A model generated the notes under the pieces. That model saw only the letters and a program-made list of their open reading frames with translations, was not told where the DNA came from and made no database searches. A DNA stretch of 64,000 bases from a virus. The stretch spans positions 1-64,000 of the IMG/VR virus record IMGVR_UViG_3300019471_000109. The stretch is one strand, 5' to 3'. Of the stretch, positions 1,937-38,580 are shown in pieces (position 1 is the first letter of the stretch; the number at the start of each line of letters is the position of its first letter). Position numbers and translations under genes: made by a program.

Positions 1937-2482
1937 TTAAACTTTTTCAACATACGATTTAACTTTGTTAAATGCTTTTTCATCATCTCCAATGTGCCCT
2001 GAATTATAATCAAGCATAATTGAAGCAGCGATATTTGCATTTTTAAGTTTTGCAATTAAACCATCTAAAAATGTGTCTGTATTGAAATTTTTTGCATCAG
2101 CAACAGTATCTTTCGCAATTTTCATTAATCTTTTTGCATATTCTGTGTATAATGCTCTATAATCATCAGCAGGTTCATCTTTAAATTTTAAAGCTTCTGT
2201 TAAATTATCACGTTCAACCGATTCGAATAATTCTGGGAACATGTCTTCAGCATCTAACTTATCCATGTTATAGCCATCTGGTGATAAAATATATTTTTTA
2301 ACTTTATCTTTAGGGCCAGTGATATCACATTCGTGGCCACGTCTAAATTTAAATTTAATACCAAATTTCTTTTCGGTTTCTTTTTGTTCTTTAGCACCGC
2401 CGTCAAAAATTACATCAGCATCAAGTGTAATATTTTTTTCGGTGATTAAAGATTCGTTCATTAATTCTTGCAAGGATTTCAT
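1937..2482 (-). CDS. Hypothetical protein (181 aa)
   Basis: ORF track; no TAG inside. Confidence 0.6.
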   Translation of the reverse strand: MKSLQELMNESLITEKNITLDADVIFDGGAKEQKETEKKFGIKFKFRRGHECDITGPKDKVKKYILSPDGYNMDKLDAEDMFPELFESVERDNLTEALKFKDEPADDYRALYTEYAKRLMKIAKDTVADAKNFNTDTFLDGLIAKLKNANIAASIMLDYNSGHIGDDEKAFNKVKSYVEKV

Positions 2483-2502
2483 ATTTTACCTCTTTATTCC
2501 AT

Positions 2503-4131
2503 TTAGATAAATTTATTTAATATTCCAAAATCCTTTTCAATTAATTTATATGCATTACTCATATCTTCTTTTGACATATCAGAAATTTTAGATTGAATTT
2601 CTTGTTCAGATAGTTCAACGTATTCAAAACAATATAAATTTGAATCATCTGGGAGTTTATCATATAATTTAATTGATAATTCAATTAATTCATTTACTTT
2701 CTTCGCAAAGAATTCATTATTTTTATGATGTTTACGTTGGAAGAAAACTTTTTCAATTTCAATTGGAATAATGCCACGTTTATCTTTTCGATATAACATG
2801 CCATTTGCTGCTTGAGCATATTCTGTTGAAGTTTCTACTTCTTTATTCAAATATTTTTCAACAGAATGATAATCTGTTCTTCCGGCAATAGTTTCAGGAC
2901 TAATATTCCATTGTCTTACAATTGAGGGATATAAGCTTGTGAGGTCATCTGATACAATCCATCCGTATCTCATTCCAATTTTAGGTTCTTTTACATAAGC
3001 GCCAACATAAGTTTCTTTTGGATGAGATCTTTTCATTGGAACAATTTTATTTTGACTTAAAAGAGAATTAAAAATAATTCCATCCCATGTTGTTACAGGT
3101 GATAATACTTTTTCAAAATTAATATGTGAGTAATATGATAGACTTACCGCTAATAATAAAAATTTTAATTTATTATCAAGCTTTTCAATTAATAAAGTAT
3201 CTTGAATGTTATAATCACAATAACGTTGAGGATCTTCTTCAGCAAGTTTCCATAAAGGACCATCGTATTCAAGTTTATTTTCGCCAAGTTCTAATTCAGC
3301 AATAAAATCTAATTTATATGATGATCTTGCGGTGATTCTGAATTTTTTATATAAAGCAAGATAATCTAAAATAGCAATACCAGCAAATGAATAAGTTTTT
3401 TCCGGAAATTCATCATCAGCGCTTGAACCTTCTGCAATTCTAGAGCCAATAAAGCCAAATGGGCTAAAATTAGATGTGACTTTTTCTCCAAATAATTTAT
3501 TATATCTATTCACCATGTACTGGATATCATAATTGTCAATATTCCAGCCTGTTACAATATGAGGATAATTAGATTTCCAATATGTTAAGTAATCTAATAA
3601 CATTTCTTGTTCTGAATTAAAATACTTATATTTAGCTCGCTTTAAAATTTCTTTAGATAAAGTACTTTTATTTCTGTCCCATTTTCTAGTTGAAAAAAGC
3701 CAGATATCACCTGTAATTGAATCGATGTGAGAAATAGCATCAATTTCTTCTTTTGCTTCATTAGGATATGGGAAACCATTTTTTGAAACTGTTTCAATAT
3801 CGATAGATGCAATTCTTAATTTACTTGCATCAAAACTAACTGGGCCTGGATATAAATCAGCTAAATATAATAATTCAAGATTTTCTTGCCCAAGTACTTC
3901 TTGATTTGCGTCTATCATCAGCCGACGATTATCTCTATATTCTTTAACAGAATTAAAATCAAATCGTTGAACGTTATTCCCGTAAATATCTTGATAACCA
4001 GTTTCATGATTACAGTGCAAAAAATACCAAGGATTCATTTGAAATTTTTCAATTTTATCTTGACCATTTTCAAAATATCTGTGATATAAATATTCACCGC
4101 GCGAATACACATTTGAATAAAATTTATTCAC
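2503..4131 (-). CDS. 43: DNA polymerase (family B, T4 gp43-like), N-terminal gene segment: 3'-5' exonuclease domain through polymerase motif A
   Basis: Strong similarity to the T4 gp43 N-terminus: DIETVS matches T4 DIEVTG, EIDAISHIDS matches EIDAITHYDS, SPVTTWDGIIFNS, and motif A DLTSLYPSIVRQWNISPETI. It ends in TAA before motif B. Confidence 0.9.
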   Translation of the reverse strand: MNKFYSNVYSRGEYLYHRYFENGQDKIEKFQMNPWYFLHCNHETGYQDIYGNNVQRFDFNSVKEYRDNRRLMIDANQEVLGQENLELLYLADLYPGPVSFDASKLRIASIDIETVSKNGFPYPNEAKEEIDAISHIDSITGDIWLFSTRKWDRNKSTLSKEILKRAKYKYFNSEQEMLLDYLTYWKSNYPHIVTGWNIDNYDIQYMVNRYNKLFGEKVTSNFSPFGFIGSRIAEGSSADDEFPEKTYSFAGIAILDYLALYKKFRITARSSYKLDFIAELELGENKLEYDGPLWKLAEEDPQRYCDYNIQDTLLIEKLDNKLKFLLLAVSLSYYSHINFEKVLSPVTTWDGIIFNSLLSQNKIVPMKRSHPKETYVGAYVKEPKIGMRYGWIVSDDLTSLYPSIVRQWNISPETIAGRTDYHSVEKYLNKEVETSTEYAQAANGMLYRKDKRGIIPIEIEKVFFQRKHHKNNEFFAKKVNELIELSIKLYDKLPDDSNLYCFEYVELSEQEIQSKISDMSKEDMSNAYKLIEKDFGILNKFI

Positions 4132-4438
4132 TTTTTACCTCTTCTAAAGTCGTGAAGAAATCACTTAATTTATTTGTTTTATATTTCTTATCTGTAATAA
4201 TTGTAACACATTTCATATTAATTATTTCTACAAATTCACCAGAATAATATTCATTAAACACAAATTCATCTGAATAATAATCATACTTAATTGTTTGGTC
4301 TTCTTTATTTCTTGCTCGTAAAATAAGTTCTTTATTTTGGTCTTTACATAATACATAATAATTATATTGATCATCATTAGAAAAGACACCAGCATTTACG
4401 CTCATCGAAACCAATAAAGCAAATAATAACTTTTTCAT
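4124..4438 (-). CDS. Small secreted protein (signal peptide MKKLLFALLVSMSVNA)
   Basis: ORF track 4124..4489. The start is preferred at the internal ATG with an AAGAGG RBS; the N-terminus reads as a signal peptide. Confidence 0.5.
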   Translation of the reverse strand: MKKLLFALLVSMSVNAGVFSNDDQYNYYVLCKDQNKELILRARNKEDQTIKYDYYSDEFVFNEYYSGEFVEIINMKCVTIITDKKYKTNKLSDFFTTLEEVKSE

Positions 4439-4517
4439 AAAATCCTCTTTATACAAAATTGTTCTTAAATAATATAAAATAATTTGCAAATTATTACTAA
4501 AACAAAGGTTAACTTTA

Positions 4518-5375
4518 ATGAAATTTCAGAATAAGAAAAGATTAATTGACGTCGGAGAAATTGGTAACGCTTAGACCGGCGATATCATTTTTAATGGTGG
4601 CGTAAAAATTAATGAAGTTTTCTAGGATTTGTATAATGTATTTGGTGATAGACGATTACTAAAAGGTAACGATGGTCAAAATTTAATGATCCTTCATGGT
4701 ACTGGATATTATCAAAAACTTCCCAGATCAGAATATACAGCAGAAATAGAAATCGGTTAGATGCATGATATCAGCACATCTGATGGTCCATTAACAATCA
4801 GACTACCGACTAATTGTAAAGCAGGTGAACGAGTAAGAATTTAGAATTTTGATGGTTCATGGAAAAACTTTACTTTATAGGTTGATGCAAATTCTGGCGG
4901 TAATATTGATGGTAAGCAAGTACAAAAATATAATCAAGATTTTTGTGAAATTCAATTTGTGTGTACAGATGATTCACAATTAAACGTTCGTGGATGGAAA
5001 GCTTTAGTTACTCCGTTATATGGGAATCATTATGTTCCTGTAGATGATATTATTGATCTATAGAGACAACAAATTCTACAAAAAGAAATCTTTAAAACAA
5101 AAGACTATACTGCATTAAAATTATTAATTTCTGGCGAAGAGATTATTAATACATCAGAACAGACATATAAACAACTTATGGAAGTTCTTGTTTTAACTGA
5201 TAAAGATCAAGTATTAAGTACTGAATACGGTGTTTTATATACTTCTCCAGAAAAATTATTTACTGTTGAGTTTGTTTTATCCCAAGATAAATCTACAGTG
5301 TATGCAAAAATCTAGTAGAGTTCTACAAAACAACTTAGAATTCAAATTAAATCTATAGAGCAAATCAAAATTTAA
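4518..5375 (+). CDS. Hypothetical protein (285 aa) with 8 in-frame TAG, including a tandem TAG-TAG
   Basis: Continuous frame from ATG 4518 to TAA 5373-5375. It is on the opposite strand between the two polymerase segments. Confidence 0.5.
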
Positions 5376-5376
5376 A

Positions 5377-5401
5377 AAAAGGAGGCAATGCCTCCTTTAT
5401 T
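5377..5401. terminator. Bidirectional terminator (AGGAGGC aat GCCTCCT + T-run)
   Basis: Hairpin plus T-tract. Confidence 0.55.
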
Positions 5402-5614
5402 TTATACTCTTTCCTTCAAAAGATCATAACACTCTTCATATGTTCCGGCAACAGCGGTTAAAATAGTACCATTTTTATGTTCTTCAACAAAATAATGAGT
5501 TGTTAAAATAACATCTTTTATATATGGATGTCCTGATTCAACTTTAGCAACAAAGAAAATTTTATCATCTTTCTTGAATTCTGCTAAAATATTTTCTTTT
5601 ACAAAAATAAACAT
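5402..5614 (-). CDS. Small hypothetical protein (about 70 aa)
   Basis: ORF track 5402..5680. The start is preferred at the internal ATG preceded by AGGAGG. Confidence 0.45.
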   Translation of the reverse strand: MFIFVKENILAEFKKDDKIFFVAKVESGHPYIKDVILTTHYFVEEHKNGTILTAVAGTYEECYDLLKERV

Positions 5615-5669
5615 AAGTCCTCCTGTTAAATACGAATCTATTTTTATATCTTTACTATAATAATTAACT

Positions 5670-6791
5670 TTAAATTTCAAATAATGAACTTAAAGAAGCT
5701 TTTTTCTCATGTTGCCATCCAATTGCTTCAGTCATTAATTTTAATGGAGCATCAAATCCTTTTTCAATCATTGTGTTCAAATCTATCATATTTTCAAGAT
5801 CTAAATTAAATTCTTTTGGCGGCTTAGTTCCTGTTGGCCAACCGAACACTTCACCAACTGTATTAGGCATTGTTAATCTTAACATATAGATTTTATCACC
5901 TGACTTAATTGGTTCAAGGTCTTTATGATATTGTTGCAGTTTATTATATGCAGCAGCAGCCTTATGGTTTTGCCCTGCTCCTTTTAATGTAACCCATAAA
6001 TTAGTATCAATATACTTGTCAAATCCATTTACTGATGAAATTTGCGCAATTTGATCTAAAGGTTGGGATCTATATTCTTCTTTAACTTTCTTAACATATT
6101 TTTGAAGATCAGATTCATCTTTAGTTAACATAATTTCAATTGCTTTTTTCAAAGCTTTTTGCGCAAATGGTGGTGTACTAGATTTCTGAGTTTCTAATCC
6201 CATTACTTTTAGTTTATATGTTAGATGGCCAGTATCATCGTATACTCTATCACCTTCGGAATCCCACACTACTGCTGCATATTTTTTCTTAGCTGTCCAA
6301 AATGCTGAACTTGCAATAATTTCGCGGTCCATGAACATTAAATGTTCTAATGAATTCATATATTTATGGAGATCTTGATATGCATTGTCAATAGCAGGCT
6401 GAATTAATTTATTATGAAGTTCATCAGCTTTATTAACTCTCTGTTCCATAGATGAATCAGGATTTCTTGATATATACATTTGCATTAACGGGTCTATATT
6501 AACATAAGCACTATCGGTATCTTGGTAGACGATATAATCTTTATCATTTGTTTTTAATACTTGGTTTAGTTTATTACTAATAGCATGACCACCCCATTGA
6601 ATAACAAGTTGACCTGTAGAAGTAACTGCTTCTGCATTTCTTAAATCATAAAATCTAAAGTGATTATTCCCTAGCGCGCCATATAACTAATTGATGAGGA
6701 TCTTACGCGCATATTGATTTACATATTCTATAATAGAAATACTCGTTAAGTGTTTTTTGGTATTTTTTAATTTTTCTAATGATGGTTTCAT
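5670..6791 (-). CDS. 43: DNA polymerase (gp43-like), C-terminal gene segment: motif B (KILIN-TAG-LYGALGN), motif C (YQDTDS) and thumb; 1 in-frame TAG at the conserved Ser of motif B
   Basis: Similarity to the T4 gp43 C-terminal third (HLMFMDRE, MGLETQKSSTP, ASLSSLFEI). It has its own ATG and a GAGGA RBS. The TAG is at complement 6687-6689. Confidence 0.85.
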
Positions 6792-6800
6792 ATATCCTCG

Positions 6801-6830
6801 AAATAAAAAAGGGTTTAGAATAATTCTAAA
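6801..6830. terminator. Palindromic hairpin (GGGTTTAGAAT AATTCTAAACCC), likely a bidirectional terminator
   Basis: Perfect palindrome between the capsid gene end and the start of the polymerase C-segment. Confidence 0.5.
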
Positions 6831-6855
6831 CCCAATTATAATTTATTAATCTTAA

Positions 6856-8136
6856 TTAATTACTTTTTAATTTAATACCAACAAACATCTATAACTTCTA
6901 TTTGCCGATTAAGTTATTCCAATCATCACCACGATTAATCTTTTCATTCTAATCAATAAAAGGATTAACTGATAATGCATATCTTGTCATTAATAAGACG
7001 TTATTATGGAAACTCATAGGATCTCTTGAAATATAAATCTATGAGCCATCTTCTTCTTGGTAAGGGCAATAATATAAAGAACCGATAATATCATCTGGAA
7101 TATATTCTTCATCTTCAGGCTCTTCATCTTTTGATACAGCTTCAGCAATATCAATATTATGTTTACATCCAACTACAAAATAGTCAAATTTGCTATAAGT
7201 GTCAATGTAAATTTTGAGACCTGATTTTAAATACCCATGAGATCTTGTCATTTCTGATTCTTGGTTGAAAACAACTAAACCAGCACCACATAATAAACCA
7301 TACACATCAGGAGATACAATTACATAAGTAGCTGAATATGTTGTGTTCTATAACATTTTCGCTGCTGCAGCACCGATCATAGAATTGATATCTCTACCAA
7401 TTTGCCATAAAGGGTCAGTTCTTGTTGATAAATCAATAAAACCATTAGTAATACCCAATGCTTTATCATCAAAACGTTTACTTACAGTGATTAATTTACT
7501 AATAATATCTTTATTAACTTCATTAACCAAAGCTGTTGCTAATGTATCCTCAACAATTGCGACAGAATCCATTCCATTTGCCTCAAGATCTTGAATTAAT
7601 TCTTGTGTTAATTTGATCTAAATTTTTCTAGTTCTACATGGAACAACCCATTTACCAATTTCAAATTTAGCTTCAATAGGTGCTTCACCTTCAGTATATG
7701 AAACTTCAGCGGCGTCTGAATATAATCTTAATGTTCCATCGATAACAGCTTTTAGCACAACAACTGATAAATCTGCATCAGCACTTAATGTTCCAGCTTT
7801 AACTGCGATATAAATTGCATCATTATCAGGCGTTCTATATACTTTATCTTTAGTTACAGATAAACCACTTGATAAAACCGGTAAATCTTTAACTTTATTT
7901 TTACTATTTGTGCCAGTAACAGTTAAATTATTATCATGTAATGTTTGACCATCTTCAGTCAAATATTTTAACCCAAAAATTTGTGCTTCTGGGTTATTTG
8001 TTTGTTGAATAGCTACCATATCACGGAAAACTCTTGAGGCAACTGTTTTCTATAATGATACTAAGTACGGGCGAGTTCCCTAAATTGCGTTGGTTTTTGT
8101 CTATTCTTGTAGTAATTCTTCTAAAATTCTAGCCAT
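6856..8136 (-). CDS. 24: gp23/gp24-family capsid protein (closest to the T4 vertex protein gp24), 426 aa, 9 in-frame TAG
   Basis: The N-terminus MARILEELLQE-TAG-TKTNAI matches T4 gp24 MAKINELLRESTTTNSNSIG. QDLEANGMD, KIYIDTYSKFDYFVVG and LMTRYALSVNPF are also conserved. The track ORFs 7039..7305, 7348..7572 and 7618..8019 are pieces of this one frame. Confidence 0.75.
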
Positions 8137-8148
8137 TATATGCCCTTA

Positions 8149-8892
8149 TTATTTTGTAGAAGTTAAGTACTCATTTACAAGTAGTAAAAGCTCTGTATAT
8201 CCAGGAGCAAATAATACTTTATCTTCAGTGATCCAATAATATAAGTTTGTATTTGTATCGCGATAGAACACAATTTTGTCTTTTACTGAAATTGCTTGGT
8301 TATAAACTTTTCTAGTAGATGGATCTTTAATTGTTCCAGATAAAATTTCATTTGCTTGATATGTAAAAATGAAATCAAATTTAACACTTTGAGTGCTTGT
8401 TAAAATAGGATAGCCAGAAACATCTGTATCAGATTTTTCTTCTGTAGCTGTAGGTTTCTATTCGGTTTCTTCTAAAGTGTCTGTATGGGCTTCTAATTCA
8501 TCCTAAACAGTATTAGTTTCTTGTACTTCAGGTTGTTCAGTAACTTCTGTAGTTTCTTGAACATCTTCATGATGTTCAGTATCTTCAACTGTTTCGGCAG
8601 TTGTTTCAGCAGTTTCTTCTGGACTAGATAATTCAAAGCCAATCACTAATGGCTGAGGCTCATCTTGAATTGTAATATAAAGTTCAACTTTATCTTCTGG
8701 GTTGTCAAATTTAATAACAGCAGATTTGTTTAATTTTACTTCTGGCGTTAAAATATTTGCTGTAGTCTATTTTACTTGAGCAGTAATATTTCTTTGACCG
8801 GTAATTTCTTTTCCATCTTGTTCAATTTTTAATGGAACTGTATAAACGCCGTTTTCAACGGTATATTCTGGAGTATAGTTTAATCTAATCAT
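8149..8892 (-). CDS. Acidic Glu/Thr-rich protein, possibly a prohead core scaffold (gp22-like by position and composition); 3 in-frame TAG
   Basis: Continuous minus frame ending in TAA TAA. It sits immediately upstream of the capsid gene. The gp22 assignment rests on position and composition only. Confidence 0.4.
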
Positions 8893-8973
8893 TTGCAAAT
8901 TTTCTCTATTAACTATATTTTTATTTTATTATTTATTATAAAAATAAAGGCGATTTAATAATCGCCTATAAAA

Positions 8974-10005
8974 TTATAAAGAAATCAAATATTCACGAAC
9001 TGATTCAGCAACACGTTTATTAAAAAGTTTAATTACTTTATCTAATAATGTGATATCTTCAAAATCCTTTTTAATATCTTCTACTGCATCTAACAACGTT
9101 TCTTTCACCACATTACCAAATACTTTTTGTAATTCTTCACGCTCAGAAATACCGAGGTGAGAACACACATTCGAAACACGATTTACATTAGCATATCCAA
9201 TAATCTGTTCTAAGAATTTTTGTTCTTCTTCAGACAAAATAGATTCTTTCTTGATCGGTTTAGATGTATGATTTTCTGAGAATTTTTGATTTTTATTTTT
9301 CAGAATAATACGCCCGAATCTTGCGAAAGTAACTTCAGTTGGCTCAATAACAACACCTTCGGTAATATTTTTACCAGTGAATGTTAGTTTTTCTTTATCA
9401 TATAATTCTTGATTATATTTTAAATTACCGGAAATAGAATCAAAATCATTAGGAAACGATAAAGCTTCATCTAAGTTATTTGTTTGTAACAAAATAACAG
9501 GAGATGCTAAACCATAAGTATTTGCTAAAATTTTAACCGTTTCTTTATTAACTGCTAATGGAACTTCAGCATCATCATTAACAAATGTTAAGAAAATGTC
9601 AAACAAATAAAATTCTTGATTACCATAGTCAACTTCTTTTTGAATTTTATTACCAGCGGTTAATGTTCCGGCATATTCACCAAATAAATTAACTACTTTT
9701 AATGTAGGTCCATAAAAACTACGAAGATAATCGTTTAATTCAGTTACTCGCTGAATTAATGTTTTTCCATTATTTTCTACACGTTTTAACCCAGGCAAAT
9801 CATAGAAACTTGAAAATTCATCTAATAATTGATTTCTTGATGCGAAAGAAATATTATTATTTTCATCAAAGATAATTTGAAAATTAGCACCATGAATTTT
9901 TTCAGAAACAATCCATGTTTGTTCCGGTAAATTCATACGGATATAATCGATTACTTTCTTTTGGGAAGCATTTGTAATACTTGGATATTTTTTAAACAAA
10001 TTCAT
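8974..10005 (-). CDS. rnlB: RNA ligase 2 (T4 Rnl2 / gp24.1-like)
   Basis: The KIHGANF nucleotidyl-transferase motif and overall similarity to T4 Rnl2 (FGEYAG, KNQKFSE). Confidence 0.8.
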   Translation of the reverse strand: MNLFKKYPSITNASQKKVIDYIRMNLPEQTWIVSEKIHGANFQIIFDENNNISFASRNQLLDEFSSFYDLPGLKRVENNGKTLIQRVTELNDYLRSFYGPTLKVVNLFGEYAGTLTAGNKIQKEVDYGNQEFYLFDIFLTFVNDDAEVPLAVNKETVKILANTYGLASPVILLQTNNLDEALSFPNDFDSISGNLKYNQELYDKEKLTFTGKNITEGVVIEPTEVTFARFGRIILKNKNQKFSENHTSKPIKKESILSEEEQKFLEQIIGYANVNRVSNVCSHLGISEREELQKVFGNVVKETLLDAVEDIKKDFEDITLLDKVIKLFNKRVAESVREYLISL

Positions 10006-10014
10006 ATTTTACCT

Positions 10015-10434
10015 TTAATACGTTACTTTAATTGTTACATCAACCGCATCTAATTCTTCAATCATAGTTTCTTTTAAAAGAGGGAGATCCGATAATAAAT
10101 CATCAATAGCATTACCAACAATCGTGGCTGGTGTTAATGAAATCAATAAAATGTTATCATCTACGGTATACAATTTCTCTACAACTAGTTCGTAATCCCC
10201 AAAAGCTTGACGATAATCATACGGTTGTTCCGGGTCAATTTCTTTGCCATCATTTTGGCCAATCATGTTAGCAATAAATTCAGAATGAATGTGTTTCACT
10301 TCATCTCTTGTTAAGCTTCCTTTAGGGTTAGACACATTAATAAAAATCGAAGGTGATAGATTATAAGATAATCTTTGTTCTAAAATCGCAGCCAATTTAT
10401 TAACTACTTGAATGGAAATCATATTTTCTCCCAT
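10015..10434 (-). CDS. Hypothetical protein
   Basis: ORF track. Confidence 0.55.
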   Translation of the reverse strand: MGENMISIQVVNKLAAILEQRLSYNLSPSIFINVSNPKGSLTRDEVKHIHSEFIANMIGQNDGKEIDPEQPYDYRQAFGDYELVVEKLYTVDDNILLISLTPATIVGNAIDDLLSDLPLLKETMIEELDAVDVTIKVTY

Positions 10435-10856
10435 TAGAATTTTTTAAGACGTTGTTCAAGAACGTGCTTATATGCTTTTAATAATTCAAATTGTTTTTGT
10501 AACAATTCATCCGATGATAAATGAGAACAAACTTTAGCTAATTTTTCAAGTTTTGTTTCCAATTCATCAAGTTCAATTTTAACATTATCTTCCCATGTCA
10601 AAACTTTTTCTCGATAATATTTTTCTTGTACTTGATACCCATATACATTCCACATTTTATCAAATGTATTATCGTATGCAACTTTTTTACCAATTTCAAA
10701 ATCAAAATTTTCTGGATCGATTACCCCAGCATCACCCTGAAAAACATATCCATTTTTAACCGTAATAACGCAATGAACACATCTGCCAGGAACAGTTTTA
10801 ATATATTGAACATCTTTGATTTGTGATTCTAAAAATTCTTTTGTTAATCTGTACAT
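10434..10856 (-). CDS. Hypothetical protein
   Basis: ORF track. Confidence 0.55.
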   Translation of the reverse strand: MYRLTKEFLESQIKDVQYIKTVPGRCVHCVITVKNGYVFQGDAGVIDPENFDFEIGKKVAYDNTFDKMWNVYGYQVQEKYYREKVLTWEDNVKIELDELETKLEKLAKVCSHLSSDELLQKQFELLKAYKHVLEQRLKKF

Positions 10857-10857
10857 A

Positions 10858-11268
10858 TTATTTCCAAAATTTTAATAATTTATAAAGTAATGATTCTTCT
10901 TTTGTTGGATATTCAACAACAGGTTCCCAAGAAACCTTAACAATATATCTAATGAATATACTATATTCTGCTTTATACCCATTTGCTTTAAAAATTTTAA
11001 CAAGCTTTTCACATATTTCAACAACTTTTTCATGAAGTCCTAATGCTTGCATATCTATAACATGAAATGGGATATCTCTTTCGTTTTCTAGAAATATGCT
11101 AGCTTGATAATCACCTTCTTTTGCTTTATATGCAATTTCTTGATTTAAATCATTAATGAATTTATTAATATCATTAAGTTCTTCAAGAATTTCACCAGCT
11201 TTATCACGTAAAGGTGATAATTCTCTAGGAATATTAATATCAATTGGTTTAGCTGTTATTTCAGTCAT
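10858..11268 (-). CDS. Hypothetical protein
   Basis: ORF track. Confidence 0.55.
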   Translation of the reverse strand: MTEITAKPIDINIPRELSPLRDKAGEILEELNDINKFINDLNQEIAYKAKEGDYQASIFLENERDIPFHVIDMQALGLHEKVVEICEKLVKIFKANGYKAEYSIFIRYIVKVSWEPVVEYPTKEESLLYKLLKFWK

Positions 11269-11348
11269 TTAAAGTCCTTGTAGTTAAGTTAAATATCTAT
11301 ATAACTTTTATATAATAAATTAAAAATAAATTAATTAAACTTATAATT

Positions 11349-12857
11349 ATGATTAGATTCTAGAAAATTAATGAAACATACGGTAAAATCTAGACTCTTG
11401 ACAACGATGCCTTATGGGAAATTAAAGATTATTGTTAGTTTCAACCAGAAGGCTATAGATTTAACAAAAAATATAAATATGGTGCTTGGTCCGGAAAGAT
11501 TTAGCTCGTTGGATAGAATGGAGAATTTCCATTAGGTTTACTAAAAATCATTGTTAAATTTTGCGTAGAGTCTAAATATAAAATCGAAATCTCTGATACA
11601 TTAAAAACTCATAAAGCATTTGAATCAAAAGAAGAATTTGATAAATGGATCGATTCAAAAGAAATTTGGGCTAAAGGTGTTAGAATTGATCCATATTGGT
11701 ATCAAAGAGAATCTGTTTTTCAAGCATTACAAAAAACCCGTGGAATTATTAATGCGCCTACTTCAGCTGGTAAATCTTTAATGATTGCATTACTTGCAAA
11801 ATGGTTTTCGGAAAATTTTGATCAAAAGGTATTGGTGATTGTTCCAACTACATCTTTAACTGTGCAAATGAAAAATGATTTAGTTGACTATAGATTATTC
11901 AAAGAATCTGATATCGCTGAAATTAGATCCGGAACTTCTCATTTTGTTTATGATAAAACAGTTGTAGTTTAGACCTGGCAATCCGCTCATAAAAAAGACC
12001 CTGAATGGTTTGAACAATTTGGAATGCTTATTGTTGATGAAACACATTTAGCTACAGGTGCTAGCATATAGCAAATGGTTAAACTAATGACTAATTGTGT
12101 TTATAAGATAGGTTTATCCGGTTAGTTAAAAGATGGTAAAGCAAACATTTTAAATTATATCGGTTTATTTGGCGATATTATTAAACTTGTTTAGACTAAT
12201 CAGTTAATGGAAGAAGGACAAGTTGCTAAATTAAAAATCAAAGCACTAAAAATTGATTATCCGGAATCAGACAAAAAAGAGCATAAAAAAGATACTTACG
12301 ACGAAGAAATAAAATTCATTACAAAAAATGAAAAACGTAGTAAATTGCTAGCAAAACTTGCTATTGGGTGTTCTTCAAAAAATAATGATGAAAATACTTT
12401 GTTAATGTTTAGATATTAGGAACATGGTAAAATGATGTACGAAGAAATTTGTAAATCATATCCAAAAGAAAAAGTATTTTTTATTAATGGTGAAATTAAA
12501 ACTAAAGATCGCGTAAAAATTCAAGAATTAGCAGATAAAGTTTCTGGTATTATTATTGTGGCATAGTACGCAACAACAGGTACTGGTATCAGTATTAAAA
12601 ATCTTTAGAATGTTATTTTTGGATAGCCGATTAAATCTAAAGTAACAGTGTTACAAACAATCGGAAGATCTTTAAGATTACATAAAGATAAAGAATTTGC
12701 TACAGTTTATGATATTATTGATGATTTAAGTATCAGATCTGCAAAAACTGGAAAAATTACCCATTAGAATTATGCACTAAAACATGGATTAGATCGTATT
12801 AAACGATATAATGAAGAGAAATTTGAATACTAGATTAATTCTTATTAGTTAAAATAA
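11349..12857 (+). CDS. uvsW: UvsW helicase (SF2 DNA/RNA helicase), 502 aa with 16 in-frame TAG
   Basis: Aligns along its whole length with T4 UvsW (NAPTSAGKSLM, VIVPTTSLT, VVV-TAG-TWQ, DETHLATG, LSG-TAG-LKDGKAN, IVA-TAG-YA, VLQTIGRSLR). The track ORFs 11781.. and 12207.. are in-frame pieces. Confidence 0.8.
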
Positions 12858-12880
12858 AAGGAGCTTAATTGCTCCTTTTT
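12858..12880. terminator. Rho-independent terminator (GGAGC ttaatt GCTCC + T-run)
   Basis: Hairpin plus T-tract directly after the uvsW TAA. Confidence 0.6.
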
Positions 12881-13052
12881 AATTTGTTATGATGCATCGA
12901 CACCCATATTATACTTCCCAACCTTCGTTAGAAATAAATCCATCCCAAGCTTCTGCTGGCGAGCCGTTCCATCCTTCAGAAAGTGTGCCACGTAATTTAA
13001 TAGAATTAATGATTTTACTTAATTCTAAATTTAATAAACCTAATTTACTCAT
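12879..13052 (-). CDS. Small hypothetical protein (57 aa, 1 TAG)
   Basis: Minus-strand ORF in the same direction as the downstream operon. The antisense + ORF 12889..13071 is an alternative reading. Confidence 0.3.
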
Positions 13053-13062
13053 TAAACACTCC

Positions 13063-13257
13063 TTAACTTAATAATTGATATTCAGAAATCTCATTATTTA
13101 CTGATTCAGTAATTGGTTTATCATGATAATTTTCATTATCTTTTGTTAATAATTCAACCATTACCTGGGCACAATAACCTTTATGGACTTTCTTGCCCAT
13201 AATTTCTTCTACATCTTGATCTAATAATTCAGTTTTACAAATAGGACAAATTCTCAT
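13063..13257 (-). CDS. Small Cys-containing protein (CPIC...C, possible zinc ribbon)
   Basis: ORF track. Confidence 0.5.
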   Translation of the reverse strand: MRICPICKTELLDQDVEEIMGKKVHKGYCAQVMVELLTKDNENYHDKPITESVNNEISEYQLLS

Positions 13258-13258
13258 T

Positions 13259-14119
13259 TTATACCTCTAATTCTTTTATCGGATTTTTGTATAATCTTTT
13301 TTCATATTTTTCTTCATATCCATAAGGATTTGAAATAAACTTAATACCTTGTTCTTCAAATTCAATTGGGCTATGAATATGTCCAGAAATCCAATAATTT
13401 GGCTTTCTTTGTAGATCTTTAAACATTTTAGAACAATCAGTAAAATATGAATAATCTAATAATTCAATTTCCGGTTTCCAGTTTCTAAGTTTTCTAAAAT
13501 TATCAACAAACTTTTGCAAAGGAGCATGATGTGTAACTACAATAAATGCTTGATCTTTTCTTAATCCTTGTGAAGCAGAAATTAATTTTTGCCAAGATTG
13601 ATCAAATTCAACAAATGCATCTTCTGGTAAAAATTTTCTATAACCAGCTTTTAGAATCATTTTTCCGAAATCATTCATTTTTAATTTTGCTTCTAACATC
13701 GCCATCGGTTCTGCCTTATTAAAATTTGTCCATAATGTTGCACCGTAAATTCTTACGGGTTTATCTTTTATAAACAAATCAATATATTCTTTTTCTAAAA
13801 AATATAAATTAGAAAATAATTCTTGTTGTATTGATTTGCAAAAGAATTTAGAATCAGTTAATTGATTTTGGTAATTTTCATGGTTTCCCTTAATTAAAAT
13901 AACTGGGCAACCAAAAGAACACATATGTCTGATAAATGTGATATATTTCCCTTTAGCAGTTGAGTTATGACATTGACCTATATCACCAGCTAAAATAATT
14001 AAATCAAATTCATCTGTTTCTTTAATTTTTAATAACTTAAAAACAGTTTCTTTATCAGATAAATCAGAATCCCAGAAGTCAATATGAAAGTCAGACGCAA
14101 TAAATGTTTTTAATTTCAC
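13259..14119 (-). CDS. Calcineurin-like metallophosphoesterase
   Basis: DFH, GDIG and GNHE metallophosphatase motifs. It uses a GTG start. Confidence 0.7.
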   Translation of the reverse strand: MKLKTFIASDFHIDFWDSDLSDKETVFKLLKIKETDEFDLIILAGDIGQCHNSTAKGKYITFIRHMCSFGCPVILIKGNHENYQNQLTDSKFFCKSIQQELFSNLYFLEKEYIDLFIKDKPVRIYGATLWTNFNKAEPMAMLEAKLKMNDFGKMILKAGYRKFLPEDAFVEFDQSWQKLISASQGLRKDQAFIVVTHHAPLQKFVDNFRKLRNWKPEIELLDYSYFTDCSKMFKDLQRKPNYWISGHIHSPIEFEEQGIKFISNPYGYEEKYEKRLYKNPIKELEV

Positions 14120-14533
14120 TTAGAATTCCCCTTGTTCAAATTTATCCCTGTCTAGAATATTCTTCAATGCAAATCCACGTTGTTTAATTGCTTCTAATGC
14201 TTCTCGAATAAAATCTAATTTTAAGCTTAATACATATAACTTCTAGTCTGCTTTTTGTAATTCAGTATCAGCCGCTAAAACAATTTTCAATTCAGACTTT
14301 TCATATGATTCCATACAAATACCTTCGCGGCCAGTATAATAATCAAGTCTTGCTTTTAATGTTCTAGATTTTTCATTTTCAGCTTGCTTCATTAAAAATT
14401 TTACGTTCTAAAAATAATTAAGCCACTTAGAATACAAGTAAGGATTATTTGCGATTTGCTATTGCAACCCAATTAGATTAATTTTAATATCTTCAGCAAG
14501 TTCTTGCTGTAATTGTTCTAAATTTTTTTCCAT
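14120..14533 (-). CDS. uvsY: UvsY recombination mediator (137 aa, 3 in-frame TAG)
   Basis: Clear similarity to T4 UvsY (LYSKWLN, KARLDYYTGR, YEKSELK, RGFALKNI). Confidence 0.8.
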
Positions 14534-14547
14534 AATTACATAAAAAT

Positions 14548-14572
14548 AAAGGTAGACTTATTATCTACCTTA
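14548..14572 (-). terminator. Terminator hairpin (AGGTAGA...TCTACCT) downstream of nadV
   Basis: Inverted repeat plus T-run on the minus strand. Confidence 0.5.
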
Positions 14573-14603
14573 TAATATAATTTTATTTAAGCTTTGTAAC
14601 TTT

Positions 14604-16244
14604 TTAGTTCATTCTGTTATTTCTACGAACATCATCGAATGAATATTCTTTAATCAATTGACCGTTTTCAAATACAAGTTCAAGTTTACCGCCTTCATCT
14701 TGCCCTTTTGACAAATTATCAATAAAGGTTTCAGAATCTAAAACTTTTACACGGCCTTTTTGCGATTTTTTCATTCCGCTATCAGTTTTTGGATCTTTGA
14801 AAATCGGAACTTCTTTACCGTTAATAATTGCTGAAGTTGCTTTGATTGCAAATCCAAAAGTATCACGAGTATTATATTGGAATGTATATGATCCGATACC
14901 TAAGACGATATTACTTGAAGCAAAACCTTTTTCTTTTAATCTTGAAAGAATTTGTTCAGCACGTTCTAAAGTAATAGAATCGCCGTAAATAGCACCGATA
15001 TGAGGATCTAAAACTTTATATCCTTTATCATTAATATATCCACCGAAAGTTTCATATAAGCACTGAATCAAGCCTTTTACATAAGGTTCATTTGTTACTA
15101 ATTTGAAACTAGGTTCAAAAATATTTGTACTTGTTACTAAATAGATATCTTCATTAATAATACAATATTTAGGACCAAAGACTGGCGAATTTACATAATA
15201 ATTAAATGCGTCTTTTAATGAATTGAAGTTAAATGCTTCAGATAAATCTACGCCACAAATAATTTCAACAGGATCGCCAGAATCTGGGCGAATAACCAAT
15301 TTACCTTCACGATTTAAAATTTTATCTTTTAACGCAGGCAAAACATTTTCAACCACGTTCCAGAAATCATATGTGTCCGATACAACTGAGAAAATACCTT
15401 CTTTATATAAATCAAGTAAAAATTCAAATGTTTTCTTATCATCTAAACCGTGTGAACTCATTACAGAATGTTCTGTTGCAGGAATACTTGTTCCAACTAA
15501 ACCTTCTGCGTTATAATATTTTTCAACAGCAGTAATTGCTGGGATTGTATCAGTTCCAACAAATGATACCAAATGGCCTAATCCAGATAATTCAGCAGAT
15601 TCTAAAGAACTCATTCCACGCATTGAAAAATCATGACCTTGGAACATAATATGATTATTATTATCACAAGTTTCTTCAGAGTATTTTTCAAAGATTTTTC
15701 GATATGCTAAAGAAATAGATGCAGAAGTCATTGGTTGCCATGTAGTGCAGCTAATTAAAGTTTCAAAATAATTTGTTAACCAATAAAATTTAGGATGTGT
15801 ATTTTCGATTGTCATTACCGGAACTTTAATTCCAACCGCTTCGCCTTCAGGAATTGCTTTAATTCTTAGCGGTAAGTAGCCAAGTTCATGAAGTTCTTTA
15901 AGGTGTTCGCCATTGTCTTCAACACCTAATGTATTTTTAATAAATGCTTTATACTGAGCTAAAACTTGTTTTAACGGAACTTTAAAGAAGTTATCATTAA
16001 AGAAATCAATTAAGTATTTTTTAATTAAGTATTGAAATCCTAATACAACAACTTGGTCAATAGGTTTTTCATTAACTTTTGGAGCATATTTATTTGTACG
16101 AGGAGTTAATGTACTATAAATTACTTCAGTTCCCGTTGGGTATTGCGCTCGATGCGAAATTTTATAAAAATCGCATAATAAAGCAGGGATACTTGATGTT
16201 TTTAAAATATTATTCATTAGTCTCTCCTTTATAATTGTAGTCAA
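14604..16244 (-). CDS. nadV: Nicotinamide phosphoribosyltransferase (NadV/NAMPT)
   Basis: 546-aa ORF with the overall NAMPT architecture. No TAG. Confidence 0.85.
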   Translation of the reverse strand: MTTIIKERLMNNILKTSSIPALLCDFYKISHRAQYPTGTEVIYSTLTPRTNKYAPKVNEKPIDQVVVLGFQYLIKKYLIDFFNDNFFKVPLKQVLAQYKAFIKNTLGVEDNGEHLKELHELGYLPLRIKAIPEGEAVGIKVPVMTIENTHPKFYWLTNYFETLISCTTWQPMTSASISLAYRKIFEKYSEETCDNNNHIMFQGHDFSMRGMSSLESAELSGLGHLVSFVGTDTIPAITAVEKYYNAEGLVGTSIPATEHSVMSSHGLDDKKTFEFLLDLYKEGIFSVVSDTYDFWNVVENVLPALKDKILNREGKLVIRPDSGDPVEIICGVDLSEAFNFNSLKDAFNYYVNSPVFGPKYCIINEDIYLVTSTNIFEPSFKLVTNEPYVKGLIQCLYETFGGYINDKGYKVLDPHIGAIYGDSITLERAEQILSRLKEKGFASSNIVLGIGSYTFQYNTRDTFGFAIKATSAIINGKEVPIFKDPKTDSGMKKSQKGRVKVLDSETFIDNLSKGQDEGGKLELVFENGQLIKEYSFDDVRRNNRMN

Positions 16245-17073
16245 ATGAATTTGATGTAGTTACTGATTTAAGATCGTCAAGATCTTTTAGTTTTCCTGAA
16301 AAGAATGATCTTTCAAGATGCGATACAATTAAATGAAAACCTGGAATAAACCAACGTTTTTTAATTTCATCAATCGCGCCTATAAATGTTCCTCCATAAG
16401 AACAAATATCATCCACAATAACAACTTCTTTATGGTCGAAGTCATTAACATCAGATAATACTTTCAAGTCAAACGATAATAACTTACCGGTGTTAAAATC
16501 TCTGATTTTTTCAATTGAAATTGCGCCATAAAATTCATTTGCTAAATGACCATAACGTTTAACCGCGGTTTTATCTGGAAAGCAAATTACATAATCCTTT
16601 AATGTTTTTCCAAGTGGAATTTCTGCTATTTTAAATGAATTATAAATTAACGAATCAATTTTGTTAATATTTTCTACATTTTTAACAACATTCAATAACA
16701 TATCTGAATGAGCATCATTGACAATTACTTTTTCAAATCCCAATGAATTTATGAAATCCGCTGCATATTGCAATGAAAAGAATTGATTAGGTGTTTTTAC
16801 ACGGTCCATTCTTGCGTACGGAAAATACGGAATATGTAATTCTTTAAAATTTTTATAATAAGGTGGAATTCCAGGCATACCTTGTTTCATGCTTTTGATT
16901 TTTTGAACAATAAACCATAAAGTCATAAAATCTTTATCATCTTTATAATGCCATTTGATAACAACATCTTTTGATTTCAAAATTGCATTTAGATTTTCTT
17001 CTGATAACTCAAGAATTTGTTCTCCAACAGGGTATTCATTTTGTATAAATTCCGTTCCGTTTATCGTAATCAT
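16210..17073 (-). CDS. prs: Ribose-phosphate pyrophosphokinase-like (Prs; PRPP-binding motif VVIVDDICSYGGTF)
   Basis: Type-I phosphoribosyltransferase/Prs motifs. The start is set at the internal ATG with an AGGAG RBS; the track's N-terminal extension overlaps nadV. Confidence 0.7.
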   Translation of the reverse strand: MITINGTEFIQNEYPVGEQILELSEENLNAILKSKDVVIKWHYKDDKDFMTLWFIVQKIKSMKQGMPGIPPYYKNFKELHIPYFPYARMDRVKTPNQFFSLQYAADFINSLGFEKVIVNDAHSDMLLNVVKNVENINKIDSLIYNSFKIAEIPLGKTLKDYVICFPDKTAVKRYGHLANEFYGAISIEKIRDFNTGKLLSFDLKVLSDVNDFDHKEVVIVDDICSYGGTFIGAIDEIKKRWFIPGFHLIVSHLERSFFSGKLKDLDDLKSVTTSNSFDYNYKGETNE

Positions 17074-17207
17074 AAGATCTCCTATTAAGTTAAACAAAAT
17101 AATTTGAATTTTAATAATAATAATTAAAGAAATTACTTTTATTTGTAAAAATAGTATCATCTAGAATGTACTTTTTCATCTTAAATGATAAATTATATCA
17201 GATAATA

Positions 17208-21584: not shown

Positions 21585-21606
21585 AAATTTATTCTATTGA
21601 GTCTAT

Positions 21607-21695
21607 GGAAGACTGGCAGAGCGGTCTAATGCAGCGGATTCTAAATCCGACAACCGGACGTATCCGGTTCCCGAGTTCGAATCTCGGGTCTTCCG
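21607..21695 (+). tRNA. Amber-suppressor tRNA with tRNA-Ser identity and a CUA anticodon (tRNA-Ser(CTA)); the anticodon is at 21641-21643
   Basis: Type-II tRNA with acceptor GGAAGAC/GTCTTCC and G73 discriminator. D-arm GCAGAGCGGTCTAATGC with a 3-bp stem as in E. coli tRNA-Ser. Anticodon loop TTCTAAA has U33, CUA and A37. The long variable arm AACCGGA-cgta-TCCGGTT and T-arm CCGAG TTCGAAT CTCGG follow. CCA is not encoded. Confidence 0.8.
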
Positions 21696-21781
21696 AGAAA
21701 ATTTTAATTTTAGAGTTTTCCCGGAAGATTAAAAATGATTGAGGTTAGACTATTTTGGAATAGTAGTAGAAATATTTCTAT

Positions 21782-23339: not shown

Positions 23340-23406
23340 AACTATTTACATTTGTTAAAATTTTTGGTATTATATATTTCTATTAAACAACAAAGAGGAA
23401 TATAAA

Positions 23407-37974: not shown

Positions 37975-38052
37975 TTAAAAATTTTTTGAAAAATCTATTT
38001 ACATCCTCATTTGTTTTTGGTATTATAGCTACATCAACAAACAAATGAGGAT
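37975..38052 (+). repeat. About 78-bp promoter/palindrome cassette copy B, identical to the copy at 62378..62455 (-35 TTTACA 37998-38003, -10 TATTAT 38021-26, inverted repeat CCTCATTTGTT/AACAAATGAGG)
   Basis: Read directly; identical to copy C over about 78 bp. Confidence 0.7.
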
Positions 38053-38058
38053 TTTAAA

Positions 38059-38580
38059 ATGAAAACAGAGCGTGATTTAGTATTAGATTTTTTTGATGCA
38101 ACAGAGATTTCTCCGTGTGGATGCAAAGCTGTGGTAAATAATCGTTGGGAATTTATTACAGACTTAATCGTTAAATACCGCAGAAATCAAAAATCTAAAC
38201 AAACTGCAAAAATCAGACAACAAAAAATCGTAGCTGAATTTAATTTAGTTAGAGATACCTTAGTATCAGAAGTCGAAGATTTTTGTAATGATTTATTTAG
38301 AAATAATGAAGATATCGTGGTTTTTGTAAATAGATCATCTGTTAATGTGTTTGACCCAATTACACAAACAACAGTTTACACAATGTTATCACCTATTTCG
38401 CATTGTATTTGTTTTAAATCAAAAACAGTAGAATTTTCTGCAATCAAAGATTTAGCTAAATCGTTAAATTATAATGTTGCTAAAAGTAAACATGAAGAGT
38501 GTATGGTAAATCAGTTAAAAGAAACCCGTGAAGTAGCCGAAGCAATTTTCGATATTTTATTAAAAGTTCGTTATGAGTAA
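38059..38580 (+). CDS. Hypothetical protein (173 aa)
   Basis: ORF track; it follows promoter copy B. Confidence 0.55.
   Translation: MKTERDLVLDFFDATEISPCGCKAVVNNRWEFITDLIVKYRRNQKSKQTAKIRQQKIVAEFNLVRDTLVSEVEDFCNDLFRNNEDIVVFVNRSSVNVFDPITQTTVYTMLSPISHCICFKSKTVEFSAIKDLAKSLNYNVAKSKHEECMVNQLKETREVAEAIFDILLKVRYE

Follow-up and report, generated by a model that had tools for sequence, protein, structure and literature searches.

How does a T4-like phage make its replicative DNA polymerase when gene 43, which encodes it, lies in two pieces in inverted order? The question is raised by a 64,000-nucleotide stretch of viral DNA (positions 1 to 64,000 of the IMG/VR record IMGVR_UViG_3300019471_000109; hereafter, the window). 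The original prediction for this stretch, made from the sequence alone, was that gene 43 is split into a gene for the N-terminal part, 43A, and a gene for the C-terminal part, 43B, with 43B upstream of 43A. Split gene 43 pairs of T4-type phages are described as adjacent and ordered, and the replication gene cluster that holds them is counted among the most stable regions of these genomes. The natural gp43 splits known so far are in order, with their parts 2 bp to 3 kb apart (PMC3061061; PMC2677866). We conclude, with a probability of roughly 0.8, that the polymerase of this T4-like phage is made as two proteins, gp43A and gp43B, from two relocated, exchangeable gene cassettes.

Two genes for complementary parts of one polymerase

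The 43A reading frame is free of internal stops, contains no TAG codons, and ends with TAA at 2503-2505. Its start codon is GTG rather than ATG, with GAGG 6 nt upstream. The gene encodes the N-terminal domain, exonuclease motifs Exo I-III (IASIDIET, NIDNYDIQY and YNIQDT; Pfam DNA_pol_B_exo1, 1.4e-24), palm motif A (DLTSLYPS), the first finger helix and ~55 amino acids (aa) of fingertip. 43B starts with its own ATG, with GAGGA ahead of it as a ribosome-binding site (RBS), and encodes the second finger helix, motif B (KILIN-S-LYG), motif C (YQDTDS), the KKKY motif (AKKKYA), the thumb and a clamp-type tail. Pfam assigned the PolB exonuclease domain and PolB profile positions 18-136 to 43A, and PolB profile positions 152-257 onward to 43B. 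Consistent with this division, 43A aligned with RB69 gp43 over residues 1-538 (E = 2.6e-113), and residues 21-372 of 43B aligned with residues 548-897 of T4 gp43 (E = 5e-69) and 554-902 of RB69 gp43. The 43B tail (KKASLSSLFEI) aligned with T4 EEKASLDFLFG and is predicted to bind the gp45 clamp; a gp45 gene is present on a sister contig described below (L097). The full-length relative P0015 was covered by the two genes with no loss and no duplication: its residues 1-520 correspond to positions 4131..2560 and its residues 516-889 to positions 6782..5673. These data confirm that 43A and 43B are complementary parts of one T4 gp43-type family B polymerase. The original prediction was therefore accurate in dividing gene 43 into a part running from the exonuclease through motif A and ending with TAA, and a part with motifs B and C, the thumb, and an ATG and RBS of its own; the coordinates that it gave for both parts (Table 1) also held.

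It did not anticipate that the 43B gene depends on how TAG is read. 43B is open only if the TAG at 6689-6687 is a sense codon, its start under translation table 11 would be at 6485, and motif B is complete only if TAG encodes serine. The corresponding codon is TAG in five strains of the species, TCG in the relative L016, and TCT in L012 and L013. Because TAG is clearly a sense codon in this genome, as described below, we consider the 43B gene call to be right.

The original prediction left open whether the split falls in the palm or in the fingers. Alignment placed the break in the chain between RB69 residues ~538 and ~554, in the fingers domain, which we take to be residues 469-572. The alignment puts the cut at the fingertip, with one of the two long finger helices on either side. 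The two halves sum to 915 aa, as compared to 885-900 aa in full-length relatives. Both halves are under strong purifying selection, with dN/dS values of 0.02-0.05 against strains with dS of 0.17-0.35, and of 0.14-0.17 against 80%-identical relatives. Based on this purifying selection, the failure to find any other polymerase, and the precedents of phage 25 and split Pfu polymerase, gp43A and gp43B most likely associate non-covalently into one enzyme. In Aeromonas phage 25, gp43A co-purifies with gp43B and the pair is active (PMC2988022). The breaks of other naturally split gp43 proteins fall in the fingertip, the hypervariable site at which the window chain is also cut, and Pfu polymerase retains full activity when it is split there (PMC3061061). 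In the window phage, the two proteins would be transcribed and translated separately and would then meet at the fingers, with no read-through between the genes and no intein. We regard this biochemical mechanism as well supported, while we infer assembly in trans, by analogy, and the evolutionary route.

43B lies 1,538 bp upstream of 43A on the same strand, and the order of the locus is gp23-like gene, 43B, gp9/10 (on the opposite strand), 43A, gp8. As predicted from the ORF (open reading frame) coordinates, the C-part precedes the N-part on one strand, and a small gene (the 70-aa ORF, - strand), a + strand gene at 4518..5375 (the gp9/10-type gene) and a gene for a secreted-type protein (the 104-aa ORF, - strand) lie between them. 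The halves are thus not a single, circularly permuted ORF: three ORFs, one of them on the opposite strand, and a bidirectional terminator-like hairpin separate them, and 43A and 43B appear from the sequence to be in separate, terminator-bounded transcription units.

To see how unusual this order is, we surveyed the first 92 related loci collected. The N-part was upstream of the C-part, fused or adjacent, at 80 loci, all of them outside the clade of the window, with apparent gaps between aligned cores of 40-1,047 bp. Another six loci, located at contig ends or on short contigs, had one part only. The C-part came first at the remaining six (L001-L005 and L017), all from the clade of the window. 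Among the loci surveyed, the inverted order was thus found only in this clade, in keeping with the suspicion voiced in the original prediction that it is uncommon. In searches of the open-access literature, no inverted or relocated 43A/43B pair came up, which is not proof of absence.

The canonical relatives L012, L013 and L101-L103 have 43A adjacent to 43B in the cluster gp45-gp44-gp62-43A-43B, an arrangement not found in the window. Their 43A and 43B products are 538-545 aa and 374 aa long, respectively, with halves 57-61% identical to those of the window, and in L101 the two genes are 3 nt apart. The chain ends in these relatives (...LHKYI / ML-P-S.EEL...) are homologous to those of the window, and this shared break point indicates that the split is older than the relocation. 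In the Acinetobacter/Aeromonas type, 43A is ~500 aa and 43B is ~390 aa, the window 43A being ~40 aa longer and its 43B ~17 aa shorter. Because the break point differs, the window-type split is probably independent of the Acinetobacter/Aeromonas split.

Two polymerase types at two loci in near-identical phages

We compared the window to a sister phage, ERZ1740124 NODE_6 (ENA; 149,037 bp), that has the canonical 43A-43B pair at one locus (L101) and a structural locus (L104) without polymerase parts. The order at L104 is gp23-like gene, 70-aa ORF, gp9/10, ORF X, gp8. Both polymerase genes of the window are in segments that are absent from L104, and the flanking segments align (Table 1). The gp8, gp23-like and gp9/10 proteins of the two phages are 99.7%, 99.1% and 98.2% identical, respectively, whereas the polymerase halves are only 59-60% identical. 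It had been proposed that the C-part sits beside capsid genes in a rearranged locus. A gp23-family gene does adjoin 43B; however, the locus does not contain one rearranged gene but two separately bounded cassettes, both missing from the sister phage. Both insertion sites are intergenic and neighbor each other within the structural gene region; since they flank gp9/10, 43B is upstream of 43A.

The converse situation was observed on the contig IMGVR_UViG_3300006521_000001 (151,593 bp), which has a locus like that of the window (L004) and a replication cluster (L097) ~50 kb apart. In L097, the gene for YqeY begins 8 bp after gp62; this cluster lacks the 4,047 bp that include 43A, 43B, and the Tmk-like and Thy-like genes of L101, and on either side of the gap it is 93-96% identical to L101. 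The replication-cluster proteins of L097 are 91-98% identical to those of L012. A PolB-motif scan of IMG/VR gave one locus only on this contig. Hereafter, we refer to the relocated polymerase as the W type and to the canonical polymerase as the L type; the W pair appears to be the only polymerase of the phage. The two sister phages differ by another cassette next to the replication cluster: where L101 has a 398-aa DNA methylase at 4704-5900, L097 has ~5 kb at 3804-8891, including a methylase that is only 34% identical.

The polymerase halves are ~80% identical within the W group (the window, L003 and L014/L015/L016) and 79-85% identical within the L group (L012/L101 and L013), but 56-61% identical between the groups. 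By gp8, the gp23-like protein and gp9/10, the window groups with L101/L104, which conflicts with the polymerase grouping; we conclude that one of two near-identical phages recently exchanged its polymerase type together with the locus. Both polymerase types are old, as judged from more distant arrangements: in L100, which comes from the sample that also yielded L013, gp9/10 adjoins gp8 directly and no polymerase is present, and among the 80%-identical relatives, L014 and L015 have 43A beside gp8 and L016 has 43B beside the gp23-like gene. In public data, clusters of the W type (W1) had 104 + 96 member sequences, as compared to 22 + 17 for the L type (L1), and W- and L-type contigs occur in samples with the same project label (L098 and L103).

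Several observations weigh against our conclusion that the phage depends on two relocated cassettes. The empty canonical site was seen on a sister contig that is 97-99% identical at the locus, not in the window's own genome, and the 64-kb window does not contain the gp45/44/62 cluster. About 42 kb of the 151.6-kb sister contig were read directly, and a very divergent second polymerase could escape the two scan patterns. Assembly and activity of gp43A and gp43B are argued by analogy, not from experiment. The early-promoter motif TATTTACA-N17-TATTAT, known from other parts of the window, has no copy within 15 kb of either cassette; 43A seems to be transcribed together with the late gene gp8, and a terminator directly precedes 43B, an arrangement that does not readily account for early expression. 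Lastly, the data fit a gain of W or a gain of L, in one event or in several.

Competing explanations and the origin of the arrangement

A chimeric or mis-joined contig could place the halves in the wrong order; the window is metagenome-like, and repeated promoter cassettes in this genome do break some assemblies. However, the same layout is present in L001-L005 (IMG/VR, from different samples), L098-L099 (ENA) and L017 (Logan), i.e. in at least eight independent assemblies, with a spacing between the halves of 1,537-1,540 bp in L001-L005. At synonymous sites, 15-28% of positions in these assemblies are unlike those of the window (dS 0.17-0.35), indicating that they represent separate strains; L017 has the same order in a sequence of its own, with 43B 86% identical to that of the window at the aa level and gp9/10 91% identical. 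Moreover, the cassette borders are without repeats. Given the recurrence of the layout in so many independent assemblies, there is virtually no chance that it is an artefact. It is also very unlikely that the halves are decaying remnants, with a full-length or adjacent polymerase elsewhere doing the work. Such a situation might be expected, since close relatives carry the second 43A-43B type at the canonical site and a genome with both types should exist at least transiently; under the standard code, the in-frame TAG of 43B would also resemble a nonsense mutation. Against this, the low dN/dS values are accompanied by a full set of intact motifs and by 80% identity of the halves across lineages. 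TAG is decoded genome-wide and, in 43B, falls where relatives have TCG or TCT, and the contig with a W locus has an empty canonical site and a single locus in the PolB-motif scan. A relaxed tblastn search (E up to 5) detected no further PolB similarity and no remnant of a duplicated half in the 64-kb window. Misassembly and a pseudogene backed by a full-length copy had been named with the original prediction as the ways in which it might fail, and neither was found. A third possibility, that a split intein joins the two products post-translationally, as for cyanobacterial DnaE or Nanoarchaeum PolB, is suggested by the frequency of inteins in the clade, which include a split intein at motif C in the L017 43B and intein blocks in the L012 gp44. 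We consider it exceedingly improbable for the window phage: the end of 43A (...EKDFGILNKFI) and the start of 43B (MKPSLEKLKN...) are without blocks A/B or F/G and gave no Pfam intein match, both broken ends align to fingertip residues of full-length polymerases, and a total of 915 aa leaves no room for an intein.

A rival account of the origin is that an adjacent 43A-43B pair was permuted locally, by excision and re-opening of a circle or by tandem duplication with loss of the outer copies, and that gp9/10 and the small ORFs were inserted later. Either route yields exactly the same-strand C-N order that we observed. Promoter/stem-loop (PeSL) cassettes shuffle genes in T4-type phages (PMC2839356; PMC4122927), and there are PeSL-like repeats in this genome. 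In addition, the L016 contig ends in the 5' half, and the L014 contig starts in the complementary 3' half, of a promoter/stem-loop cassette, such that 43B and 43A could be neighbors there in C-N order with other genes between them; this join is ambiguous because the cassette is repeated. We nevertheless regard local permutation as unlikely. The gp9/10 gene, the 70-aa ORF and ORF X are resident, since the sister phage has them in the same order, with 93-99% identity and no polymerase part, and in the more distant L100 gp9/10 and gp8 are back to back. Furthermore, no remnant of a duplicated half was detected, and there is no PeSL within 15 kb of the cassettes. Joining the Logan contigs L016 (which ends after 43B) and L014 (which starts 2.3 kb before 43A), both from one sample, was tried and set aside: they share no k-mers and the element at their ends is repeated, making the join a possibility only.

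A search of the breaks for remnants of an intein or of a homing endonuclease had been suggested with the original prediction. No intein was found, as described above, but a putative endonuclease gene is located at the start of 43B in other strains. A 396-aa Vsr-like ORF lies between the gp23-like gene and 43B in L002-L004 and L098 (~8,814-10,002 in L003; 3954-5144 in L098), with a 362-aa homolog at the corresponding position of L016 (8937-10025), which is 79% identical. In these four strains, the insertion measures 1,181 bp and is placed precisely at the ATGAAA start of 43B. In L003, the inserted ORF directly follows this ATGAAA; it duplicates (T)ATGAAA, takes over the 43B RBS, and ends by overlapping 43B by ATGA. 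Its assignment as a nuclease is based on the motifs LDFYIPE...AIEFNGDYWHS and on sub-threshold Pfam matches to a restriction-endonuclease fold (7.9e-6 and 6.9e-4, including REase_MTES_1575). The ORF is absent from the window and from L001. In fractured genes, the endonuclease gene precedes the C-part, and losing it can leave the parts uncoupled (PMC2677866). We propose that the starting point was most likely a fractured gene in which a Vsr-like homing endonuclease gene separated 43A from 43B, and that the parts later lost their genomic linkage. 43B would have been placed between the gp23-like gene and the 70-aa ORF, and 43A, together with the secreted-type ORF, between gp9/10 and X/gp8. The W and canonical L types would now be swapped by recombination between co-circulating, otherwise ~99% identical phages, with loss of the redundant copy after each exchange, and the W-type enzyme would work with a clamp and clamp loader nearly identical to those that serve the L-type enzyme. 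A further idea, doubtful but conceivable, is that the W and L types are rival, endonuclease-linked selfish cassettes: the Vsr-like nuclease would drive W into co-infecting phages, with the redundant copy being lost, and the late-type units and the motif B TAG could tie polymerase supply to the code switch.

Further interruptions were noticed in replication genes of this clade. In L017 (3-431 and 491-1471; Logan SRR30769982), 43B is broken at motif C (YSDTD/S) by a natural split intein: ORF1 ends in an N-intein (SVVGDTLI...VTEDHSVM) and, 60 bp further on and in a different frame, ORF2 begins with a C-intein (VYDIEVDDNHNFF...ILVHN/S). The intein blocks match those of the PolB split intein of Pseudomonas phage MIJ3 (PMC6892783), and split-intein proteins of the L017 type include P0123, P0124 and P0128. 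The polymerase of the L017 phage would, from its sequence, be encoded in three pieces. The W-type 43B allele P0121 has dense substitutions relative to the window 43B at residues ~78-105, around motif C (IIYSDTDSVYVD), that match the flanks of the L017 split intein, as expected for a co-conversion tract from intein/endonuclease homing. In L012 (7110-9447), L093 and L102 (5490-7827), gp44 has intein blocks (...VYDIGIEDPHLYVTPNGLIHHN/TS) at the P-loop, with a 386-aa ORF ahead of it, and looks like another fractured or intein-bearing replication gene; gp44 is uninterrupted, at 318 aa, in L013, L101 and L097.

Expression, TAG decoding and comparison with known split enzymes

Table 1. Features of the polymerase locus and its surroundings in the window, including segments compared to the structural locus of the sister phage (L104).
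Feature	Position	Strand	Evidence or remark
43A, N-terminal polymerase subunit, 542 aa	2503..4131	-	ORF, Pfam, RB69/T4 and P0015 alignments, dN/dS
43A cassette, 1,943 bp: 104-aa signal-peptide (secreted-type) ORF and 43A	2523..4465	-	Absent from L104, which has 12 bp instead
104-aa ORF with N-terminal signal-peptide-like sequence, part of 43A cassette	4124..4438	-	Stop codon overlaps the GTG start codon of 43A
43B, C-terminal polymerase subunit, 373 aa	5670..6791	-	ORF, Pfam, T4/RB69 and P0015 alignments, dN/dS
In-frame TAG in 43B at the conserved motif B serine	6687..6689	-	Codon comparison among strains and relatives
43B cassette, 1,212 bp: terminator hairpin, RBS, 43B, 45-nt spacer	5624..6835	-	Absent from L104, which has 38 bp with a different terminator instead
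Segment upstream of 43B cassette	14603..6836		94.7% nt identity to L104
Segment between the cassettes	5623..4466		92.8% nt identity to L104
Segment with 5' part of ORF X	2522..2221		70% nt identity to L104
Segment	2220..1935		Absent from L104
Segment	1934..278		95.4% nt identity to L104
gp23-family head protein, 426 aa, 9 TAG codons	6856..8136	-	Pfam; directly upstream of 43B cassette
Terminator-like hairpin after gp23-like gene, 10-bp stem and T run	6811..6833	-	Ends ~10 nt before the 43B RBS
70-aa ORF downstream of 43B	5402..5614	-	Resident: sister phage has a copy without 43B (2 aa differences); also in L017
Bidirectional terminator-like hairpin, 9 bp, 5 GC pairs	5378..5398	.	Where the 43B/70-aa unit and gp9/10 converge
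gp9/10-type baseplate wedge/tail-fibre connector, 285 aa, 8 TAG codons	4518..5375	+	Pfam T4_gp9_10_N, 1.6e-27; resident late-type gene
ORF X, 181 aa	1937..2482	-	5' part ~70% nt / 62% aa identical to sister phage; edge of exchanged tract
gp8 baseplate wedge, 10 TAG codons	957..1934	-	Pfam; downstream of 43A and X, same strand
UvsW-type helicase, 16 TAG codons	11349..12857		Pfam with TAG as sense
Suppressor tRNA, anticodon CUA, 91 nt, long variable arm, G73 (serine type)	21606..21696	+	Required for translation of 43B and late genes

No promoter could be assigned to either half, because a scan for sigma-70-type promoters gave 45 matches as compared to 44.7 expected from shuffling of this 29% GC DNA. 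The T4 late-promoter octamer TATAAATA occurs four times, on both strands, in the 64 kb, as compared to ~30 copies expected from base composition; none is near the cassettes, and only two of the four are upstream of a gene. Early-promoter cassettes (aaaatcTATTTACAt-N17-gGTATTATAgctac) with a stem-loop that pairs with the RBS are located at ~37,980-38,060 and 62,380-62,460 on the + strand, with other copies near 23,343, 24,680 (- strand), 44,905, 44,996, 48,406, 57,499 and 62,996; two copies are identical over ~75 bp. These repeated promoter/stem-loop cassettes resemble the PeSL elements of T4-type modular shuffling (PMC2839356; PMC4122927).

Translation table 11 fragments the region, whereas reading TAG as a sense codon restores full-length, conserved gp8, gp9/10, gp23-family and UvsW genes. 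Serine, rather than glutamine, appears to be the amino acid inserted at TAG: of the homolog residues at the 10 gp8 columns with TAG, 26% are serine (background 6.9%) and 4% are glutamine. Public gene calls render TAG as glutamine (as in P0121, KILINQLYG), and in the open-access papers searched, TAG-to-glutamine is the only reassignment mentioned for phages. Further TAG examples are at 4572 and 4623. Structural and late-type genes (gp8, gp9/10, gp23-like, UvsW and UvsY) are where TAG codons cluster; the early-type region at 24-64 kb and 43A have almost none, a distribution that fits a recoding that separates early from late translation.

Pfam and PHROGs gave no match for the 104-aa, 70/92-aa and 181-aa ORFs. 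ORF X varies in length: L001 and L003 have a form of 87-89 aa and the sister phage one of ~90 aa, as compared to 181 aa in the window and in L098. The C-terminal half that is present only in the long form is similar to a 101-aa ORF after 43A in L014 (34% identity over 76 aa). Genes of the NAD-salvage type, for a nicotinamide/nicotinate phosphoribosyltransferase and a phosphoribosyltransferase-domain protein, are at 14604-17160 (- strand). On the + strand, a YadA-type trimeric autotransporter adhesin with head repeats, stalk and membrane anchor is encoded at 59466-61550, and an OmpA/BamE-type lipoprotein at 61615-62379. For the lipoprotein, the closest genomic relatives belong to the Pasteurellaceae (Glaesserella, 54%; Volucribacter, 51%), which weakly suggests a host from this family.

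The bicistronic gp43 of Aeromonas phages 25, 31, 44RR and 65 and of Acinetobacter phage 133 belongs to the same family, is broken at the hypervariable fingertip, and is divided as in the window, the exonuclease and motif A being encoded by 43A, and the thumb and motifs B and C by 43B; in some of these phages, a homing endonuclease gene is associated with the split (work of Petrov and Karam, as reviewed in PMC2988022, PMC3061061 and PMC2677866). There, however, 43A is directly upstream of 43B in the replication cluster, whereas the window halves lie away from that cluster with the C-part first; each appears to have a transcription unit of its own, and an opposite-strand baseplate gene separates them. 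Fractured genes, mostly phage replication genes, consist of an N-part, a free-standing endonuclease gene and a C-part (Dassa et al., 2009; PMC2677866); sister strains and an 80%-identical relative of the window phage similarly have the Vsr-like ORF (D..YIPE), which is of a family covered in that paper, directly upstream of the C-part. The present case differs: the broken ends lack split-intein halves, the endonuclease gene is not preceded by the N-part, and the window strain has no endonuclease gene. Cyanobacterial DnaE (dnaE-n/dnaE-c), Nanoarchaeum equitans PolB and Methanothermobacter PolB, the parts of which are 85 kb apart (PMC3061061), are likewise replicative polymerases from two unlinked genes, for which chromosomal order has ceased to matter. 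By contrast with the window polymerase, which is broken at the fingertip with no intein, DnaE and the N. equitans PolB are rejoined by split inteins and the Methanothermobacter PolB is cut in the palm; moreover, these splits are fixed in cellular lineages, while the window arrangement is polymorphic between phages that are ~99% identical elsewhere. T4 topoisomerase 39/60 with mobA, and Aeh1 nrdA split by mobE, are essential enzymes cut by a mobile endonuclease gene and reassembled from pieces (PMC2988022), but those pieces stay adjacent and in order, unlike the pieces in the window. PeSL shuffling also produces clean presence or absence of cassettes between near-identical T4-type genomes (PMC2839356; PMC4122927). 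Its cargo consists of accessory early genes in hyperplastic regions, whereas the cargo in the window is a core polymerase in a late-gene region with no flanking PeSL. What is new here is that the halves are permuted and separately inserted on either side of a baseplate gene, and that near-identical phages show a clean two-type, two-locus polymorphism.

One practical consequence is that gene callers using table 11, or reading TAG as glutamine, mis-annotate this polymerase, and annotation based on synteny would call the polymerase missing. Overall, an essential polymerase appears to be exchanged in these phages as movable gene cassettes. The polymerases of the sister phages share only 60% identity and are encoded at different loci, and where one phage has its genes, the other has a clean empty site. 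They are a natural pair for asking how an essential multi-subunit enzyme gets replaced without loss of fitness, and how much polymerase divergence is tolerated with an unchanged clamp and clamp loader, the replication-module proteins being 91-98% identical. The W/L pair also lets one test whether homing endonucleases mobilize neighboring essential genes. If the two types were rival selfish cassettes, the core polymerase of these phages would be mobile and hop between loci, and it would have to stay compatible with the same clamp, clamp loader and helicase.

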